A stretch of DNA of 49,554 nucleotides, filler included, from Catajapyx aquilonaris (GCA_000934665.2; 2 parts of 2 records of this genome joined end to end with filler, not necessarily neighbours in it); one strand, 5' to 3'. Positions 14,322-47,344 are shown, counted from the first letter of the whole stretch. Numbers and translations: made by a program. Notes: generated from the sequence alone by a model not told the origin.

Positions 14322-16666
14322 ATGGCCGAGTTGAGGAACAGGCAGCTGCTGAAGAGCAAGTCTAGTGTGATAGTTGGAGAAGAAGAGGACCTCAGGTTCA
14401 AGATTGTGCTTTTGGGAGACTCTGGAGTGGGAAAGACGTGTCTGATGAAGCGGTACTTCTCGCAAGAAGCGTTCGCCGAAACACCAAAGACCACGATAGG
14501 AATGGACATATTCTCGGATTTGTGTGTGATTGACGGGAATCTCATCAAGGTAACGGTCTGACTGTGTTGTTGCGAGAAAAAAAACCCTCTGACAATGGGG
14601 CTATTATGACAGGGAAAGGAATGGCTAGGGGGGTGATATAACGAGCTGAGAACAATATATAGAATTATCAAGTGCGCGAATAAATAGCTAGAGATAATGA
14701 CAAGTACAATGCAACCTTGCATCTTAGCCGACTAAAGGGGACACAGAAAATGCGAATTAATCTTAACAGTTTGTGTCATAATAAAATGGGAATGCACGTG
14801 CGTCAATTGTGTTCCAGTGTTCTACTATAAAAATTACAGCAGTTGCTATCAGGTTACATCGCATACCAGAAATTGGGCTGACATACTAAGATAAAACGTG
14901 TGATAATGATTATTTTCAGTCCTTATTTTTATTCGGTCATTATCGCTTGTGCTGTGGCATTACAGAAATTTTACCTAAAAAATCTGCTTGCAAAATTGCA
15001 CCATTTGTAATATACCACGATTTCTACATAACCATGATGTGCAGTCGAAGCTACACATCCGCTCATAAATTACGTAACACCGCCAGCAAATCAACACGCG
15101 GCAGTAAATAATGAGCAAGATTTTCGCATCGTAAAGATTTAAATAAAAGTTAGGCAAAAATTCGCCAAATATTTACCTTTCCATATTACACTGCAGTGTG
15201 TAATACTCTGTGTTATTACTTCCTCCTCTTCATGACCTTCTTATTTTCAAATGTGCTACAACCTAACTTTATGTGACTATAATACACAGACGCGCCTTTT
15301 CGCTGCACCCCAAGTTCTCAGTCAAGTTCTTGGTTCTTTTTATTAAAGTAGGCGGATTTTATTTGGATTCATGCACGGAGGCGGGGGCTAGACAAAATAA
15401 ATATAATCATGAGCCCGGGTAAGTGACACGACCAAGGCCGACTCTTGGACCTTGATGGAACCATCCTTTAGACAGGGCGTGAAATACTATGTACGCGGCG
15501 GGTGCAGACCGCAAGTAATTGCAGCCTCCATGACAAATGCGGATCCTGCTCGAGTTGAACATACTGTGTAGACAAAAGCTTTCGTATAGCCTTGAGAGAA
15601 TAAATTCACAGTAATAACCGTAATAAATGAACAGTCAGGCTAATGGAATTCCAGGTTTCGAGACGCACTTAATTATACCTTGTATTTCTTCTAGGTATAT
15701 TTCTGGGACACAGCGGGTCAAGAGAGATACCACACTGCACTCAGAGAAAGCTATTTTCGATCTATAGACGCCATAGTAGTAGGTAAGCATATTGTGAATC
15801 ATGCCAAACTGTTGGGTGTGTCTGACCTTCCGATTTGTATTTTTTTTTGCAGTGTATGACATAACCGATGTTGATAGCTTCAAGCACGTGGAAAGTTGGA
15901 TAAAAGAAGCGAAGAATTACAGCTCAAAGGACAACTTTGTCTGCATGCTTCTGGGTAAATGACCTGTAATGTGATGATGGCATCACCGTCTAATAATAGA
16001 TCTTGACTTCCAGGAAACAAGTGTGACCTAGAGAACCACCGGAAAGTGTCGAAGAAAGAAGCAGAGAAACTGCTGCAATGCCATCCTGAAATCTACTGGG
16101 TGTTTGAAACCTCGGCCATGGAAAGCACCAACACCGAAAGAGCATTCGTGACTTTGGTCAGCGAACTTGCGGTCAGTTTATTAAGTCAACAGGGTGTGAC
16201 TAATGATAATATTTACACACAATTACCCAAGGATATAACGCATATGTAAAAATAATATTTGTTACATACAGTGGGTGAAATTCTTTCGAACAATATGACT
16301 TTCAGTGTAATTGTTGCTGGAGCCGTATACTCATCAAGGTCACTCGCAATCGACAAAGTCGATTGACGTCAAAATGACGTCGCCAATGATGACCAGGGCA
16401 GGGCGAGGAGAATTGGTGACGTCATTTTGACATCAATCGACTTTGTCGATTGCGAGTGACCTGGATGAGTATACGGCTCCAGACTCTCATTATTCTCATT
16501 ACAGAGAAAGTACGAAGGTGTTGATAAGGCCAGAAAAAGACGCCAGCTTGATATTGTGCGACTGATGGACGACGGAGACATTACAAGGCGATACATGATC
16601 AGGACTGGAAGATACGACACAAACAGGAACTGTAGAGGAAAAAGTGTTGGATGCGGTTGCTCGTGA
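14322..16666 (+). CDS. Divergent Rab-family small GTPase (Rab43/Rab19-like paralogue), 5 coding exons, about 245 aa
   Basis: Hand-spliced exons 14322-14549, 15695-15782, 15853-15954, 16014-16171 and 16505-16666, all GT..AG with consistent phases (0,1,1,0). Motifs: FKIVLLGDSGVGKT (G1), TTIGMDIF (switch I), [10 protein letters not shown] (G3), VYDIT, GNKCD (G4), ETSAM (G5), C-terminal CGCS*. AATAAA near 16903. The start ATG is inferred; the frame is open further upstream. Confidence 0.88.
16317..16482. mobile_element. Palindromic MITE-like element in the last intron of the Rab-like gene
   Basis: Arms of about 71 bp (CTGGAGCCGTATACTCATC...CCAAT / ATTGG...GATGAGTATACGGCTCCAG) with about 3 mismatches around a 24-nt spacer. 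No clear TSD. Confidence 0.75.
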
Positions 16667-17363
16667 TCACGATTTAAAAGGAAACGAACACTGTGCTCTT
16701 ATTCTTTAAAAAGTCACGTTCCCAGTTAATGTGGCTTTATGACGCCACTTTGACGGAGCTGTATTGTGCACAATATTTTGTATTCTCGGGAGTGTGTGAG
16801 TACCGCGCACATGCTTCCGGTTTTTAAAACGGTGACAATGGAGCTTGAACCTGGTTGTGCTTTTTTTTCTGTACTTAACATGTGTCGAGAATTTCAATTT
16901 ATAAATAAATAAATACATGTATATAAAGTGTGTCTCTTGTAGATTAATATTGATGTGTTCAGCATGTCCCTTTTTTCACTTCAGAAAATAGCGAAAATGC
17001 AACGTACCGTACTTTATTAATTATTTGTGTATGAAAAAGTACACAGATTGATATTCTCATGAATTGCAGTAATTTGTTTTAATAATTATTGATTTAATTA
17101 AAAATTTGACCCATCCCTCTCTCAACTGTTGATTCAACGCTCCAGCAGGCATTTTTGCCACGCTCCGTTAGATCTTAATTGATAACAAACAGTTAATTAA
17201 AACTGTGCACACCCAGACCGACCTTGACACCAGCCCTATTTGATCGCAAATGGAAGGTTATCTCATTATTATCACTTGACAATTTCAATATTTGAATTCA
17301 CGCGCAATTGATTAAATAAGACTAGAATTTGTAAACGCATCTGGTTTACATCAGTGAGGACAA

Positions 17364-17490
17364 CCAATCACAGCTCGAGATAGGATCAAACGGACCAATG
17401 GCTGTCCTGTGACGCATGCGCAGTGTGCACTTTTTGTTCTCAGCTGTTAGTAGGCGACAGTGGTGCCACCTGAAAATTCAAGATGGCTCT
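17364..17490 (+). promoter_or_regulatory. Probable TATA-less housekeeping promoter of Rab43
   Basis: Two CCAAT boxes (17364-17368 and 17395-17399, 31 bp apart), an NRF1/Ewg-like GACGCATGCGCA (17411-17422) and a YY1-like CAAGATGGC (about 17479-17487), all within about 215 bp upstream of the ATG. Confidence 0.6.
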
Positions 17491-17578
17491 CTGCTGATCC
17501 TTTGCTGATTTTTTTTTTGGATTTTTGTTATTATTATATTTTTTTCTCTTTGTTCCCTTTGCGGTGGATCCCCCAGTG

Positions 17579-20113
17579 ATGTCCCGCAGCAGCATGACCG
17601 CATCGTCTTCAATGTCGGACGACAGCTTCGACTTCCTGTTCAAGATCGTGCTGATCGGGGACTGCGGAGTAGGGAAGACCTGCGTGGTGCAGCGGTTCAA
17701 GTCTGGAACCTACGTTGAAAGGCACGGGAACACCATAGGAGTCGACTTCTCCATGAAGACCATGATGGTCGAAGGGAAGAAGGTCAAGCTGCAGATCTGG
17801 GACACCGCGGGGCAGGAGAGGTTCAGGACCATCACGCAGAGCTACTACCGTTCCGCTAACGGAGTCATCATCGGTACGCTTCCTCAGCAAATGAAATGGG
17901 CATCATATTAAAGTCTGTTTATAATGTTGCAGTGTATGACATCACAAGGAGGGCGTCTTTTCTCAGCCTTCAACGATGGATTGAGGAAGTTAGGCGTTAT
18001 ACTGCTTCCAATGTGGTCCTCATGGTTGTTGGTAAGTCTGCCGTCCCAAAGGTAAAACACCTTATCTGCAAAAACTAGTAAGGGTCTGCCATCCCAAGGT
18101 AAAACACCCTAACTGCAAAAACTAGTAAGGGTTTGCCGTCCCAAGGTAAATCACCCTAACTGCAAAAACTAGTAAGGGCCTGCCGTCCCAAGGTAAAACA
18201 CCTTATCTGCAAAACTAGTAAGGGTCTGCCGTCCCAAGGTAAAACACCTTATCTGCAAAACTAGTAAGGGTCTGCCGTCCCAAGGTAAAACACCTTATCT
18301 GCAAAAACTAGTAAGGGCCTGCCGTCCCAAGGTAAATCACCCTAACTGCAAAACTAGTAGGGGCCTGCCATCCCAAGGTAAAACACCCTAACTGCAAAAC
18401 TAGTAAGGGTCTGCCATCCCAAGGTAAAACACCCTAACTGCAAAAACTAGTAAGGGTCTGCCGTCCCAAGGTAAAACACCTTATTTTCAAAAACTAGTAA
18501 GGGTGAAAGTTACGTTGATTAATATTTTATTATTTTGTTTGTGTAGGGAACAAGTGTGACCTGGAGAGCCTGAGGGAGGTTGAATTTAGTGAGGCTGAAG
18601 CTATGGTGGATTACATCCCTGAGATTATGTTCGTTTTGGAGACGTCTGCCAAAGAGAACACCAATATTGAGGATGCCTTTGTGGCCCTGGCTACTGAGCT
18701 GAAGGTATGAATCATTTTAAATTTTAAATTTTTTGGCAATGCACGGATAATCCGCACCCGGATAATCAGGAGTACAGTGTATTTGCTATGATGGTTGCTA
18801 CAGATTCAACACCATGCGACGGAAGGAGTATAAACTAGCATGAGCCAGTACGTCGATCCTTCCTGTACTTTATAGGATGGGTAGGCGCCTTCTTGCAACT
18901 TATGCACAGGCGTGGCAGCCGTTGGACGAGACCAAGCGGCGAGCCAAGCGTGCCTGCCTATACGTCTCCAGGAAAAGTCATGCCAAACAGAGAGTGTTGG
19001 TCACATGGACAAGGCAGAAAGTTAGGGCAGTTGTTCACTACCAGTGGTCAACATTTCACATACGACATTCATTGCTGGCTAGTGGAGTGTATGGTCTAGA
19101 GATGTCATGTCTGAGCAAGTGGTGCAGCAATATGGTGCCAGCAATTCTGGAATCAGCTCATGAGTGTGAAGGACAACCAGAGACCCAGACTACTGGCCAC
19201 GGCAATAACCTACAGTGTCCTCAAGTGTCCTAACTTCTGACTTAGTCCATGTGACCAACACTCTCTGTCTGGCATGATTTTTCCTGGCGGAATGTGGGCG
19301 GGTACGCTGAGCTCGCCACTCGGTCTCATCCGACCACTGCTGTGCCTGCGCATAAGTTGCAAGAAGGCACCTACCTGTCCTATAAAGTAGAGGAAGGATG
19401 GACGTACATGCCCCATCCCCGTCTTTGTCCTGTCCTTCGCATGGCGTCAAAACTGTAGCATCACGAAACTTATCTTCCGACTAGCCCTCGTAATTGTTGA
19501 AGGGGTAGTTTTAAAATTCTGTGTCGATAAACAGATACCCAGTGAATCATTGTGCCAAGGGACACTTTTATTAGTCATCCGTACACGACTGAAAATTCTG
19601 CAACTTGCTCTTTCGACAAAAGCAGTTTAAAATGGTGGTCTTTTTAACAAGGAGCGGTTTATCTTTTTTGATTGGCCATTGACATCGGCATTTATTACTG
19701 CCTAGTTAGAGTTCTCGAACCAGCCTTTCTTACCATATGTGATGTTAATTTTTGAAAGGAACCAAGGGGGCCATTCTGAATGATTCTGAAGATAAAATTT
19801 ATGTTGCAGAAGTAACAGATACTTGTGGCGTCGGGATGTAACAATATGAAGTGCTTTAGGTTATATTTTACCCATTTGAAGTTACTACCTAAAATTGTGA
19901 CTTTTTTTTGTATATGTGAGTGGAAGCCCTGAGATTGCAGAAAATGGCACAATAATGTTACACAGCACAGTAGTAATCTAAATCAGTAAATTTCCTTAGC
20001 AAAGGCAAGAAGGTGTCGGCAACATGGAGGCCATGAAGAGCAACACTGTGCGACTAGGAGAAGGCCAAGCTCTTTCTTCCAGATGTGACCCTTGTTCCTT
20101 CCGATTGCCTTGA
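17579..20113 (+). CDS. Rab43: Ras-related protein Rab43 (Rab19/Rab43 subfamily), 4 coding exons, about 221 aa
   Basis: Exons 17579-17873, 17933-18031, 18547-18704 and 20000-20113 (GT..AG, phases 1,1,0). [45 protein letters not shown]...[26 protein letters not shown] is characteristic of Rab43/Rab19. Also GNKCDL, ETSAK and C-terminal [15 protein letters not shown] at 20197-20202. The true start could be a later in-frame ATG. Confidence 0.93.
18036..18503 (+). repeat. Minisatellite, 10 copies of a 46-48 bp unit, in Rab43 intron 2
   Basis: Unit consensus GTCTGCCGTCCCAAGGTAAAACACC(T/C)TA(T/A)CTGCAAAA(A)CTAGTAAGG, counted directly. The array starts at the 5' splice site. Confidence 0.95.
18796..19460. 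mobile_element. Foldback/long-TIR non-autonomous DNA transposon in Rab43 intron 3
   Basis: Imperfect inverted arms of roughly 230 bp (TGCTACAG...CCATGCG...CCTTCTTGCAACTTATGC...CAGAGAGTGTTGGTCACATGGAC and its reverse complement at about 19225-19460). The mirror-image ORFs 18877+ and 19450- in the track reflect this. Confidence 0.85.
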
Positions 20114-34811: not shown

Positions 34812-37482
34812 ATATTGCAGAGGTGTTGCGTGAGTTCCAGTGTAAGCTGTGCTTGAAGTTACTTGGTTCTCGAGCAGCTTTGCAGCGCCACATGAAGGAG
34901 GTGCACCAGAAGGATTTGGTGGGCTGCTGTACATGTGATCGTTGTGGGAAAATGTTTCAAAACAAATCCAACCTTAAGATCCATATGCTTACCCACTCAG
35001 GAGTCAAACCATTCAAGTGAGTTGCAGATTCATTTTATGAAGTTGGAGTTACAATTAATGTTTTTAAAATACTAGATGCAATGAGGGTGGTTGCCCAGCA
35101 GCCTTCACCACCAAGCAATGCCTGCAGTTCCACTACAAGAAAGTCCATGGATTCACTGATGACAACATGCCTGGTATCCAGCGCTGTGTGGCCTACACAT
35201 TTGATGCCTACTCAGGGGGGACTGTGGCAGATCCAGGAAGGGGAAAGATTCCTCTCTCTCTGACTCCCAGCTCAACACCACGCCACATGAGTGACGCTGA
35301 AAACAGTGTCAGCAATGCATCACATGATGAGAGCAGCTGTGATCCCTTGGCTTCTGCTCCAGCATCAGCACCTCCAACTGTCCAAGCTCGCACCAAAGCT
35401 GAACTATCTCCAGAGGTGAGTTCAGCTCAATTGAAAATAAAGGGGAAGGGTTTTATACATCCTGTGCAAGCGAGACACAGATGTGATATCTTGAATTTCA
35501 TGTTTATTCAGGACACAACACCTCCTCAGCAACAGTCGCAGTCAAACAGTCTGGATAGCATAATATCCAGTTACACTACCAAAGTAGTGAGTAAAGGCAG
35601 CAAGAAGTGGATGGGAGACCTGGGCCCTTTGCCCCCATCTGCCAATGCTGCTGTCCCAAAAACTTCCCTAGAACGGCTAAAACATGAGGAACCCCTGTCA
35701 CCTCCTCGGAATGAAGATGCTCGTGTTGGAAGCAGCAGGACTTCAAGAGATGTGTATGATTTTAGTGAGAAGGTGACCAATGAAGAGCAAATTTCCCACC
35801 CACGTTTTGAACAACCGAAGCCATTCCGAAGAGGTCCAGAATCAACTGCTAGCCTTTTGGTAGAAGCTGCCCTGGATGCTGCTGAGAAAGATCTAAGTGC
35901 ACATGCTGAATGCCTTGACAAACAGCAAGATGTAGAGCCACCTCCAGCACTCATTTCTAAGCTTCTGCCCCGCCTTCCTATGCTCCATATGCACGACAGT
36001 GGTACTGAGGATCCCCAGCCTCCTCGGCTGAGTCCCATTGTTCAGCATCCAAACCACCCACCACGATTGGGCTTGGACTTTGTTTCCCCCCAGCGCCAGC
36101 ACATGGATGGAGCCTACAGTCTCACAGCTCCCACCCTTCGTCCTGAGCTGGGTGACAGCCTTTCTAGTGATGGTGAGGCTAGTATTCCACCAACTCTTCA
36201 CCCTGAAGGAGGAGGAGGAGGACACACTCCAAAGCAAGGCGAGGGCCCTCTGCCACCACTAGAACTGACAAGTTCTGTGGGCTTGGACATGAGCTACAAA
36301 CCATACAGTCACCACTCAGTTGATCCAGGGATGATGTCAAGTCACATGACCGAACAGGATATGGAAGCAATGAGTTTGTCTCGTCAACAGCAACAAGCAA
36401 TGGATAGTCTGCAACATCACTCTGAGCTGCCACCTCCTCCATCATCAGGGGCACACCCCCGAAGCCTTTCTCCACAAGGCAGCATGAGCCCTCTACCAGA
36501 TCTCCAAGAAGACCTTCGGCATTCTGACTTTCGCTCTCTTCGCCAGCAGGAATCAAGTCGGATGTCCTTTCTTCCCCCTGTGGCCACATCTGAAGCTCTA
36601 CAGGTTACAGTCAGCCATATGGGAGTGGAGTCATTGCGCTCACAGCTCTTATCTGGTGAGCAAGGACTGGACATGACTCGTTCTCCTTTTTCCACTGGAG
36701 GTGGGTATAGCAGGTCTGACTTGAGCCCACACACTCAGCATCAATATCAGGAGGTCCCTCGAAGTACAGCACCATCCCCATTTGATATGGAACGGTCCCC
36801 TGTGCACAGCATGGATCTGAGCCTCAATGCCCGGGCTAGTGCTTACTCCAACCCACCAGATCTTCAACGGTCAGGGTACTCTCATTCAAGTCTTATTCAT
36901 GGAGTTCAGACATTAGACTTGACATCAGGGCGGCACAGCATGGACCTCTCCATCCCACGGTCTCAGCACGATTCTGCACTGGAGCTCGGCCGTGGCATGT
37001 CACCTGTGTCTCCACCAACTCCAGCTGGCACTCCAGTGCACAACCATCAACGATGTGTGTCACCACCATCACAGCTACGAGTAGTCAGCCCCAACACACA
37101 AGTTTTACTTGCTTCTCGGGTGGTCTCACCATTGCCGTCCCACCACCATCACCACCATCACCACCACCATCACCAGTTGCCTCCCTTCAGTTCTGGCAGA
37201 GTCATGACTCCAAGTGCCCAGCCTCTAGTCACCCGAGTCATGTCTCCACTGCCACCACCACCATCATCATTGGATCACATGTCACGAATTGTGTCTCCAC
37301 CAGCCACCAACCACATAATTCCTTCAGGTGGAGTGAACCAGGGCAGAGATGGGGGCCGTGTCATGTCTCCTCCCACCTACCAGAACTATCCTGTTTGCCC
37401 TTCACCCTATCACCTATCCCGTACTGCCCATATCACTTCTCAGCCACCCTCTACCTACCACCACTACTCTGGATATTACTGA
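34812..37482 (+). CDS. C2H2 zinc-finger transcription factor, 3' coding exons (three fingers plus long Pro/Ser/His-rich tail); 5' end not resolved
   Basis: Exons 34812-35016, 35076-35415 and 35512-37482. Fingers: FQCKLCLKLLGSRAALQRHMKEVH, CTCDRCGKMFQNKSNLKIHMLTH, a SGVKPF linker, and CNEGGCPAAFTTKQCLQFHYKKVH. The 59-nt intron 35017-35075 joins fingers 2 and 3 in frame. A 96-nt GT..AG intron (35416-35511) lies inside the 771-aa ORF of the track. Ends ...YHHYSGYY*. Confidence 0.9.
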
Positions 37483-46200: not shown

Positions 46201-46553
46201 TCACAGAGTAAACCTGTGTTCGAAAAGAGAATCCCTAATTTGGAAAGTGTTGACAAGTGCAAGTGGTGTTGTCTGCTGCTATATATTATCTGCCCGACGC
46301 TCCTCTTCCTCCCGGAAGTTCGTTCCAGAAATTGACAAGTGAGCTCTTAAATAATTCCGTTTAAAGCGGCTGAGTATGTAGGTCGTTGCAATAGAGGAAT
46401 ATCTAAGGGAAAGAAGGGGAATCATTACATTTTTATACCAGAGCTGCCTGTCTGACATCTTGCAGAAATCGATATCGCATAAAAAAACCCGAGGGTGTCG
46501 ACATTTCAAGTCATAAATACAGGTGCGGTCAGGTTTTGACTATCACAAGTGCT

Positions 46554-47344
46554 ATGGGCAGGAATCTGTGTACATTAGTCCTGTTCTTGGAAATCACAGC
46601 AGTGCTTGGGTCAGGATGGTACTGGCCGGTACCGACCACTACAACACCTCCCACCTCAACTACCACCACCACTCATCCTCACCATCCTCACCCCTTTCCA
46701 TATCCACACCCACCCATCTGGTACTGGCCTTTTCCACCAGGATGGCATCCACCACCTCCACCTGCCACAACTGCTACCACCACTAGGCCAACCACTACCA
46801 CTAGCAGACCACCGACAGTCATCTGGTGGTGGCCACCGCATGGTTACTATCCACCGTTTCCCTACCCACATCCGCCACCACCGCCTCCTCCTACCACCGC
46901 AACTACAACTACCACCACCACAAGACCTACCCCTCCGCATTATCCCTACCCTTTATACCCATGGCCCTACGCGGGTCAGTATGTTCAACCACCAACAACC
47001 ACTCGGCCTCCTGCCAACTGCACTTGTGTTCCTTATTACCAGTGCGATGAGTCTCAAGTTGTTACGAGTGGTAAGTTCAAAGACAATCGACGTATAAAGG
47101 AACTCTGATAGTCCGCGATAGGGCTGCACATTTAGGTATTACGCTTTCAGGGCCAGTGATTGACATTCGGCATCCCCATGGTTGCTCTTCGGCTTTGGAA
47201 GTCTGCTGCAGGTCGCCCAGACCCACGCCCTCGACCACCACGGCCAGACCTACACCTAGTGTCCCTACGGCCTTCCCTGGATATCAACCGCAATGCGGAC
47301 GAAGGAATCCCAACGGTGTCCATTCACGGATCCTAGGATTCCAG
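46554..47344 (+). CDS. Secreted CLIP-domain serine-protease homologue (masquerade/prophenoloxidase-activating factor 2-like), exons 1-2; continues beyond the visible exons
   Basis: Exon 46554-47070 (signal peptide MGRNLCTLVLFLEITAVLG, donor G|GTAAGT) and exon 47151-47344 (donor CAG|GTGTGT). The spliced clip domain CTCVPYYQC...VIDIR...CSSALEVCC has 6 Cys and is followed by CGRRNPNGVHSRILGF, the typical linker into the protease-like domain of PPAF-II/CLIPA proteins. No protease-domain exon was recognised in the window. Confidence 0.88.

Follow-up and report, generated by a model that had tools for sequence, protein, structure and literature searches.

Results

An intact Rab gene upstream of the Rab43 gene of Catajapyx aquilonaris

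The window examined is a stretch of 49,554 nucleotides (nt) from Catajapyx aquilonaris (GCA_000934665.2), made of two parts of two records joined end to end with filler, and all positions below are counted from its first letter. Exons were read from the sequence, then spliced and checked by script. Two Rab genes lie head-to-tail on the plus strand, an upstream gene at 14322-16666 (five exons, 245 amino acids) and a downstream gene at 17579-20113 (four exons, 221 amino acids), with 912 nt between the stop codon of the former and the start codon of the latter (Table 1). An earlier description made from the DNA letters alone, called here the sequence-only reading, had taken the upstream gene for an intact, fast-diverging, lineage-specific and neofunctionalised tandem duplicate of Rab43 with rewired effector surfaces. 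The explanation that we favour on balance is close to this: the upstream gene would be an old DNA-level tandem copy of an arthropod-type Rab43/Rab19 gene, and a real gene whose surface has been rebuilt.

The open frame of the upstream gene, whose first methionine is the ATG at 14322, runs through 245 codons in five exons without a frameshift or a stop, just as the sequence-only reading had it. All four of its introns have GT-AG ends, as have the three introns of the downstream gene. These four introns and the unbroken frame speak against a processed or decayed pseudogene. Three introns are shared between the two genes in position and phase (phase 1 within the valine codon of VYDIT, phase 1 within the glycine codon of GNKCD, and phase 0 after ELA or ELK), and the penultimate exon is 158 nt long in both, in agreement with what had been noticed before. 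Beyond that earlier description, the upstream gene has a fourth intron, intron 1 in Table 1, which is missing from the downstream gene. The Ras family of Pfam (PF00071) matched every exon of both genes other than the two tail exons, for which no match was found. A tblastn search of the window with both proteins revealed no third Rab copy, all other matches having E of at least 0.9, and two antisense open frames over upstream exon 1 gave no Pfam match.

Table 1. Exons of the two Rab genes and the intron found in the upstream gene only
Feature	Position	Strand	Length (nt)	Content and end	Pfam Ras match
Upstream exon 1	14322..14549	+	228	amino acids 1-76; N-terminus, P-loop GDSGVGKT, switch I, IGMDI; ends in phase 0	E 1.7e-10
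Upstream intron 1	14550..15694	+	1145	GT-AG, phase 0, between IK and VYFW; no counterpart in downstream gene
Upstream exon 2	15695..15782	+	88	KVYFW, DTAGQE, switch II with one-residue insertion; ends in phase 1 inside Val codon of VYDIT; Rab33B switch II aligned without gap	E 1e-05
Upstream exon 3	15853..15954	+	102	VYDIT to LLG; ends in phase 1 inside Gly codon of GNKCD; counterpart in downstream gene 99 nt	E 1.8e-04
Upstream exon 4	16014..16171	+	158	NKCD, loop longer by two residues with PE, ETSAM; ends in phase 0 after ELA; same size as downstream exon 3	E 1.3e-07
Upstream exon 5	16505..16666	+	162	includes TGA; tail of 53 amino acids, net charge +8, end GCGCS	no match
Downstream exon 1	17579..17873	+	295	ends in phase 1 inside Val codon of VYDIT	E 6.4e-30
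Downstream exon 2	17933..18031	+	99	ends in phase 1 inside Gly codon of GNKCD	match
Downstream exon 3	18547..18704	+	158	ends in phase 0 after ELK	match
Downstream exon 4	20000..20113	+	114	includes stop; tail ends CDPCSFRLP	no match

The downstream gene as a standard arthropod Rab43/Rab19 orthologue

In a word-index search with downstream exon 1, 7701 proteins reached E of 1e-10 or lower among 8000 scored candidates, and most single-domain rows among the 120 matches listed were arthropod proteins named Rab-43, with a few named Rab19. The full-length protein aligned with insect orthologues at 76-83% identity, the alignment reaching their ends, and in the trees described below it branched after the crustaceans, basal to the insects. 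We assign it as a standard orthologue of the single arthropod Rab19/Rab43 gene, known in Drosophila as Rab19. Because identity to any library protein did not exceed about 83%, the libraries apparently lack close relatives of this species. The downstream protein ends in CxxC and a few more residues, as is usual for Rab43 of arthropods. In most of the arthropod orthologues the C-terminus is CxxC plus three to five residues, unlike the textbook CC or CXC ends of Rab proteins, and the prenylation route of such tails may deserve attention.

Constraint on a probable old and fast-changing copy

The two proteins are 44% identical over 196 residues (tblastn), and their coding sequences are identical at fractions of 0.59, 0.62 and 0.385 of the three codon positions. 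The nonsynonymous distance (dN) was 0.57, and the synonymous distance (dS), ranging from 1.5 (LWL85) to 2.6 (NG86), was saturated. When the two gene regions were compared by blastn, only four short matches were found, all over coding motifs, and neither introns nor flanks showed similarity. Because synonymous sites are saturated and no intron or flank similarity is left, the duplication is judged to be old, not recent.

To set these distances against neutral expectation, the downstream coding sequence was evolved in 20,000 runs with substitutions only and no insertions or deletions, using a Jukes-Cantor third-position distance of 1.29 of which the upstream gene received a half, 0.35 or a quarter. 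No stop arose in 0.0002, 0.0018 and 0.0044 of the runs, respectively, and the chance that the 16 splice-site bases survived neutrally was 1.2e-4, 1.4e-3 and 7.8e-3 for the same shares. Since the frame and the splice sites were so rarely kept, neutral drift of the upstream gene since the duplication is very unlikely. The simulated mean neutral amino-acid identity ranged from 0.28 to 0.50, and the observed identity of 0.41 between the two proteins falls within this range, indicating that the upstream gene changed fast. The claim of fast divergence is likewise borne out by the terminal branches of the 43-row tree described below, where the upstream gene has 2.86 changes per column against 0.20 for the downstream gene, a branch about 14 times longer. 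The ratio dN/dS is about 0.2-0.4 for the pair as a whole; because almost all protein change sits on the upstream branch, the average of the upstream lineage may be put, roughly and from saturated numbers, at 0.4-0.8.

The length of the G domain of the upstream protein has changed by three in-frame single codons only. The frame, all 16 splice-site bases and the G1, G3 and G4 motifs have been kept despite the saturation of synonymous sites, which upholds the earlier view that this is no decayed pseudogene. We have little doubt that the upstream gene, judged by these features, is or for a long time was a functional coding gene, and it probably still is one.

Losses concentrated on the switch and interswitch surface

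Invariant columns were defined as those conserved to at least 98% across 100 Rab43 sequences (99 from the libraries and the downstream protein). The upstream protein keeps 41 of these 66 columns and has changed 25. Among columns conserved to at least 90%, 16 of 38 are kept within residues 40-102, which cover helix 1, switch I, the interswitch strands and switch II (G3 excluded). By contrast, 26 of 36 are kept within residues 103-192 (Fisher p=0.011). The nucleotide-binding motifs have lost little, with 6/7 conserved columns kept in G1, 6/6 in G3 and 3/3 in G4. This concentration of losses on the switch and interswitch surface agrees with the rewired surfaces of the sequence-only reading, whose quoted motif changes are all present: IGVDF to IGMDI, KLQIW to KVYFW, a one-residue insertion in switch II, and SAK to SAM. 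Two further single-residue insertions were found, in KRYFSQ and in SSKDN. GDSGVGKT, DTAGQE and NKCD are in place, and SAM stands for SAK at G5. Rab11-type rows of the alignment read ETSAL at this position and two unnamed Rabs read ETSAQ and ETSAV, so that the lysine of SAK appears to be dispensable.

Every best match of the upstream protein in the PDB and in the protein libraries was a Rab. The RabF consensus that Pereira-Leal and Seabra are said to have given in 2000 reads IGVDF, KLQIW, RFrsiT, YYRGA and LVYDIT. The upstream protein has IGMDI, KVYFW, RYHTAL, YFRSI and VVYDIT at these places, and the last alone is near the consensus. The phenylalanine of IGVDF is part of the hydrophobic triad that is read by effectors. 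A threonine of switch II, which we take to be the LRRK2 site of Rab8, Rab10 and Rab43, is replaced by arginine. From DTAGQE to the Y/F-Y/F-R motif switch II spans nine residues, a spacing shared by 0 of 168 fetched Rab domains.

The tail was compared with those of 95 of the 99 Rab43 orthologues, namely those matched by the tail pattern. Its 53 residues and net charge of +8 stand against a median of 35 residues (maximum 47) and a median net charge of 0 (maximum +4), in line with the longer, basic tail reported before. Whereas arthropod Rab43 tails end in the CxxC arrangement given above, this one ends in CGCS. The CxC-type end that had been claimed therefore holds in part: a C-terminal cysteine motif is kept, but GCGCS is a CxC followed by one residue and not a terminal CxC. 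With an additional cysteine 12 residues from the C-terminus, the protein carries cysteines where a prenylation motif of the Rab family would be expected.

Evidence for the proposed descent from Rab43

The character that we consider most telling for a Rab43 origin is the spacing from NKxD to E[T]SA. This distance measures 26 residues in both proteins of the locus and in 91 of the 108 domains of the Rab43 hit list; in all other fetched Rab domains it is 24 in 88/96 and 26 in 1/96. The dipeptide PE occupies the equivalent place of the loop in the upstream protein and in 86 of the 91 listed Rab43 domains with this spacing. The loop is one residue shorter in annelid and mollusc Rab43 and two residues shorter in nine outgroup Rabs, and PDB alignments at this alpha4-beta6 loop show a one-residue gap for human Rab43 and a two-residue gap for Rab39B and Rab10. 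The 26-residue spacing with PE thus suggests that the upstream protein carries a derived trait of arthropod Rab43.

Pairwise scores point in the same direction. All 45 best BLAST matches of the upstream protein came from the Rab43 list (152-168 bits, 42-46% identity), and every other fetched protein scored 138 bits or less, these others being a haphazard sample made up of the best library matches to upstream exon 1. States specific to the downstream protein were found in the upstream protein at 10 columns, including Met137 (0/99 others), Val198 (1/99) and the triplet EGV (0/99), with no clear signal in view of 8 columns at which it follows the consensus. We consider it likely that the upstream gene descends from an arthropod-type Rab43 by tandem duplication.

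The position of the upstream protein was further examined in trees of Rab43 and nine other Rabs, a sampling without named arthropod Rab30, Rab33, Rab35, Rab1 and RabX6. In a tree of 43 rows (the upstream and downstream proteins, 32 Rab43 picked from the 99 for taxonomic spread, and 9 other Rabs; IQ-TREE, LG+C20), the upstream protein was sister to all protostome Rab43 (87/79). The approximately unbiased (AU) test kept both a grouping with the downstream protein (log-likelihood difference 9.27, p=0.085) and a placement with arthropods (7.62, p=0.125). A second tree, of 33 rows, was made without the nine distant Rabs and without an amphipod row that was garbled. In it the upstream protein fell with the downstream protein in an unresolved hexapod group (89/85), itself part of Pancrustacea (94/90), and had a branch of 4.65. 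Long-branch attraction to distant outgroups would yield the position that it took in their presence. Because AU tests rejected none of the alternatives, the trees settle neither the age nor the placement of the upstream gene. Within this sampling, the phylogeny of the spliced protein, for which the sequence-only reading had asked with arthropod Rab30 and Rab33 included, puts it as sister to or within Rab43 and leaves the choice between these undecided.

Taxonomic range

No orthologue of the upstream gene was found in any search. A word-index search with exon 1 returned one match, a Trichuris Rab-43 at 42% identity, and one with exon 4 returned eight candidates, none of which scored. A HMMER search with exon 1 against 1.84 billion representatives gave 2003 matches, none below 1e-30 and none above 57% identity, without an orthologue among them. 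Its best rows were fused or multi-domain proteins, and its 20 named matches were protist, plant, fungal, bird, cockroach and tick proteins, none of them resembling the upstream protein. No orthologue was found in JGI metagenomes either, where 80 loci were at most 58% identical over short stretches, all through a generic P-loop pattern, and the ESM Atlas returned only "Ras family" for exons 1 and 4. Literature searches turned up nothing specific on a Rab43/Rab19 duplicate in arthropods or on fast-evolving Rab copies of flies.

The claim that the gene is lineage-specific fits this absence, which is weak evidence with apparently no close relative of the species in the libraries. An orthologue evolving as fast as the upstream gene could escape an exon 1 search, and near relatives are unsampled. 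Because the Rab43 list names several dozen arthropod species, most of the arthropods sampled probably lack the gene or an annotation of it. The searches also brought up a hypothetical protein of Blattella germanica of 1706 amino acids with four Rab-like stretches, and proteins of the tick Haemaphysalis longicornis of 361-463 amino acids in a cluster whose representative has two Rab-like stretches. Either the gene models have fused tandem Rab genes in these cases, or the proteins truly contain several Rabs. None resembles the upstream protein closely, the tick protein scoring 125 bits and the Blattella protein falling outside the 60 best non-Rab43 rows.

Repeats and other genes in the window

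Intron 4 of the upstream gene holds a near-perfect palindrome of 166 nt (16317-16482; arms of 71 nt, 96% complementary, 24 nt between them), which looks like a small foldback or an insertion of the type of a miniature inverted-repeat transposable element. Nearly all of intron 2 of the downstream gene (18036-18504) consists of ten copies of a 47-nt tandem repeat with 92% matches, and its intron 3 holds a large inverted repeat at 18848-19407 (arms of 186 nt, 81% complementary, 188 nt apart). An open frame across the latter (18844-19233) had no Pfam match.

Three other open frames were noted in the window. One on the minus strand at 21271-21666 matches the RFX BCD domain (PF25340, E 5.5e-14), suggesting that a gene for an RFX-type transcription factor lies downstream of, and convergent with, Rab43. 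Another on the plus strand at 35068-37482, of 804 codons, shows an apparent C2H2 zinc finger end followed by low-complexity sequence rich in serine, proline and histidine with a run of 11 histidines; no Pfam family matched it, and it probably forms the long terminal exon of a transcription factor gene. At 46407-47108, also on the plus strand, lies an open frame whose end matches the PPAF-2-type Clip domain (PF18322, E 7.2e-07); it probably belongs, as an exon, to a gene for a clip-domain serine protease.

Discussion

The upstream gene resembles arthropod Rab43 in lying next to it on the same strand, in three introns with their phases, in the 158-nt exon, in the 26-residue spacing with PE, and in its best pairwise scores. 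It differs from arthropod Rab43 in the extra intron, the three single-residue insertions, SAM for SAK, and the change of 25 out of 66 invariant residues. A likeness to Rab33B (structures 1z06, 6zay and 2g77) was found in switch II, which in Rab33B is one residue longer than in other Rabs and aligns to upstream exon 2 without a gap; Rab33B is the top PDB match for this exon (23.6 bits). However, the other three exons of the G domain show no preference for Rab33B. The assignment of the upstream gene to Rab33 was rejected: the length of switch II fits, but Rab33B is absent among the matches listed for exons 1, 3 and 4 (the best 60 rows for exons 1 and 3, and 40 matches for exon 4). As to additional Rab copies in single lineages, the Rab9-like copies of Drosophila are fast-evolving Rab copies. 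Primate Rab40A/Rab40AL and Rab41 and hominid Rab6C, listed as lineage-restricted duplicates in Klopper et al. 2012 (PMC3425129), are, like the upstream gene, extra copies in one lineage beside a conserved parent, but the upstream gene, at 44% identity, has moved much further away from its presumed parent.

Several observations weigh against the favoured explanation or parts of it. In the 43-row tree the upstream protein lies outside a well-supported protostome Rab43 clade (96/97), and in the 33-row tree a placement outside arthropods was kept by the AU test (log-likelihood difference 3.32, p=0.13). A profile of 99 Rab43 sequences gave it 185 bits (rank 34 of 216), compared with 388 bits for the downstream protein, while a plant Rab8-type protein scored 208, Rab11 207, ypt2 205 and Rab37 about 187. 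The best PDB matches differed from exon to exon (Rab8, Rab1 and Rab10 for exon 1; Rab33B, Rab21 and Rab30 for exon 2; Rab21, Rab2 and Rab1 for exon 3; Rab39B and Rab43 for exon 4). The 10 columns at which the upstream protein shares states with the downstream protein are faced by 8 at which it follows the consensus instead, which gives no clear signal of duplication within the lineage, and the shared introns could predate the Rab43 family. The upstream gene may be neofunctionalised, as the sequence-only reading had it, yet both ranges of dN/dS would also fit relaxed constraint. Finally, prenylation by Rab escort protein (REP) and geranylgeranyl transferase (GGTase) is made less certain by the CxCx end and by the loss of most RabF residues. 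The claim of a tandem duplicate of Rab43 is thus backed by adjacency, shared introns and the Rab43-type loop with PE, but the trees leave the matter undecided, and other subfamilies score no lower than the upstream protein with the Rab43 profile. Because it lies outside the 96/97 clade when outgroups are present, has changed 25 of 66 invariant columns and scores 185 bits with the profile, we regard the upstream protein as a derived paralogue and not as a Rab43; the alpha4-beta6 loop longer by two residues with PE, the shared introns and the exon size support its descent from Rab43.

The upstream gene might instead represent a different old subfamily that metazoans derived from Rab1 (RabX6, Rab33 or Rab30, for instance), and lie beside Rab43 through early tandem copies. 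According to Klopper et al. 2012 (PMC3425129), Rab1 gave rise to Rab19, Rab30, Rab33, Rab35 and RabX6 in metazoans, and vertebrates have lost RabX6, a history that would agree with such an origin. So would the Rab33B-like length of switch II with its gapless alignment and a spacing met in none of the 168 fetched domains, the position outside the Rab43 clade when outgroups are present, and the lack of preference by the Rab43 profile; a weak hint is that Rab19 shares a chromosome arm with RabX6 in Drosophila, at a distance of 7.6 Mb, according to the materials table of PMC8016483. However, the 26-residue spacing with PE is a character of arthropod Rab43, and Rab33B leads in exon 2 only. An old subfamily should moreover have left orthologues in many of the arthropod proteomes that bear Rab43, yet none stood out, and without distant outgroups the upstream protein joins the hexapod group and not the branch between arthropods and lophotrochozoans. 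We therefore regard this origin as unlikely. Still less probable, in our view, is a redundant duplicate that drifts under relaxed constraint, being non-essential or recently silenced with its frame unbroken so far. Such drift would account for the loss of 25 of 66 invariant residues, for an amino-acid identity (0.41) that lies little above the neutral expectation (0.28-0.50), and for the failure to find an orthologue. It is hard to reconcile with an unbroken frame (P 0.0002-0.004) and intact splice sites (1e-4 to 8e-3), both improbable even without insertions or deletions, with length changes of the G domain confined to three in-frame single codons, and with losses that spare G1, G3 and G4 and are regionally biased instead of uniform.

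According to the explanation favoured here, that of an old tandem copy, an arthropod-type Rab43/Rab19 gene would have been copied in tandem at the DNA level long ago, the downstream copy keeping the ancestral sequence and the protein of the upstream copy changing about 14 times faster. The latter copy has kept the elements for GTP binding and hydrolysis (P-loop, switch I threonine, DTAGQE with the catalytic glutamine, and NKCD) together with C-terminal cysteines for prenylation. It has also replaced much of the surface formed by alpha1, switch I, interswitch and switch II, and gained a longer switch II and a long, strongly basic tail. The identity of a Rab is set by its switch and interswitch surface and its tail, and polybasic prenylated tails go to acidic membranes, as in Rab35 and K-Ras4B. 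The upstream protein may thus work as a membrane-anchored GTP/GDP switch of the Rab type that engages effectors and regulators different from those of Rab43, and its polybasic tail suggests that it probably does so on a different, more acidic membrane.

A bolder proposal is that the upstream gene founds an unrecognised, fast-evolving Rab subfamily of one arthropod lineage, born from Rab43, in which the surface for effectors, guanine nucleotide exchange factors and GTPase-activating proteins was rebuilt under positive selection and a polybasic, prenylated tail redirects the protein, away from the Golgi and towards plasma membrane or endosomes. It would invoke the replaced phenylalanine of the hydrophobic triad, the switch II longer by one residue, and the change of the switch II threonine to arginine as products of that selection. 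We offer this tentatively and think it rather doubtful as it stands, but if true it would provide a natural example of a Rab acquiring a new identity.

Lineage-restricted Rab copies are a known phenomenon, common in eukaryotes, to which the upstream gene adds one. How a new Rab identity originates after duplication has mostly been inferred from old, fixed subfamilies. At this locus a presumed parent and its derived copy would stand side by side, with the nucleotide-binding core kept, the partner-binding surface largely replaced and the charge of the tail different. The upstream gene would be one more lineage-restricted copy if it is not expressed and conserved in related species, and a convenient case for the evolution of Rab specificity if it is.

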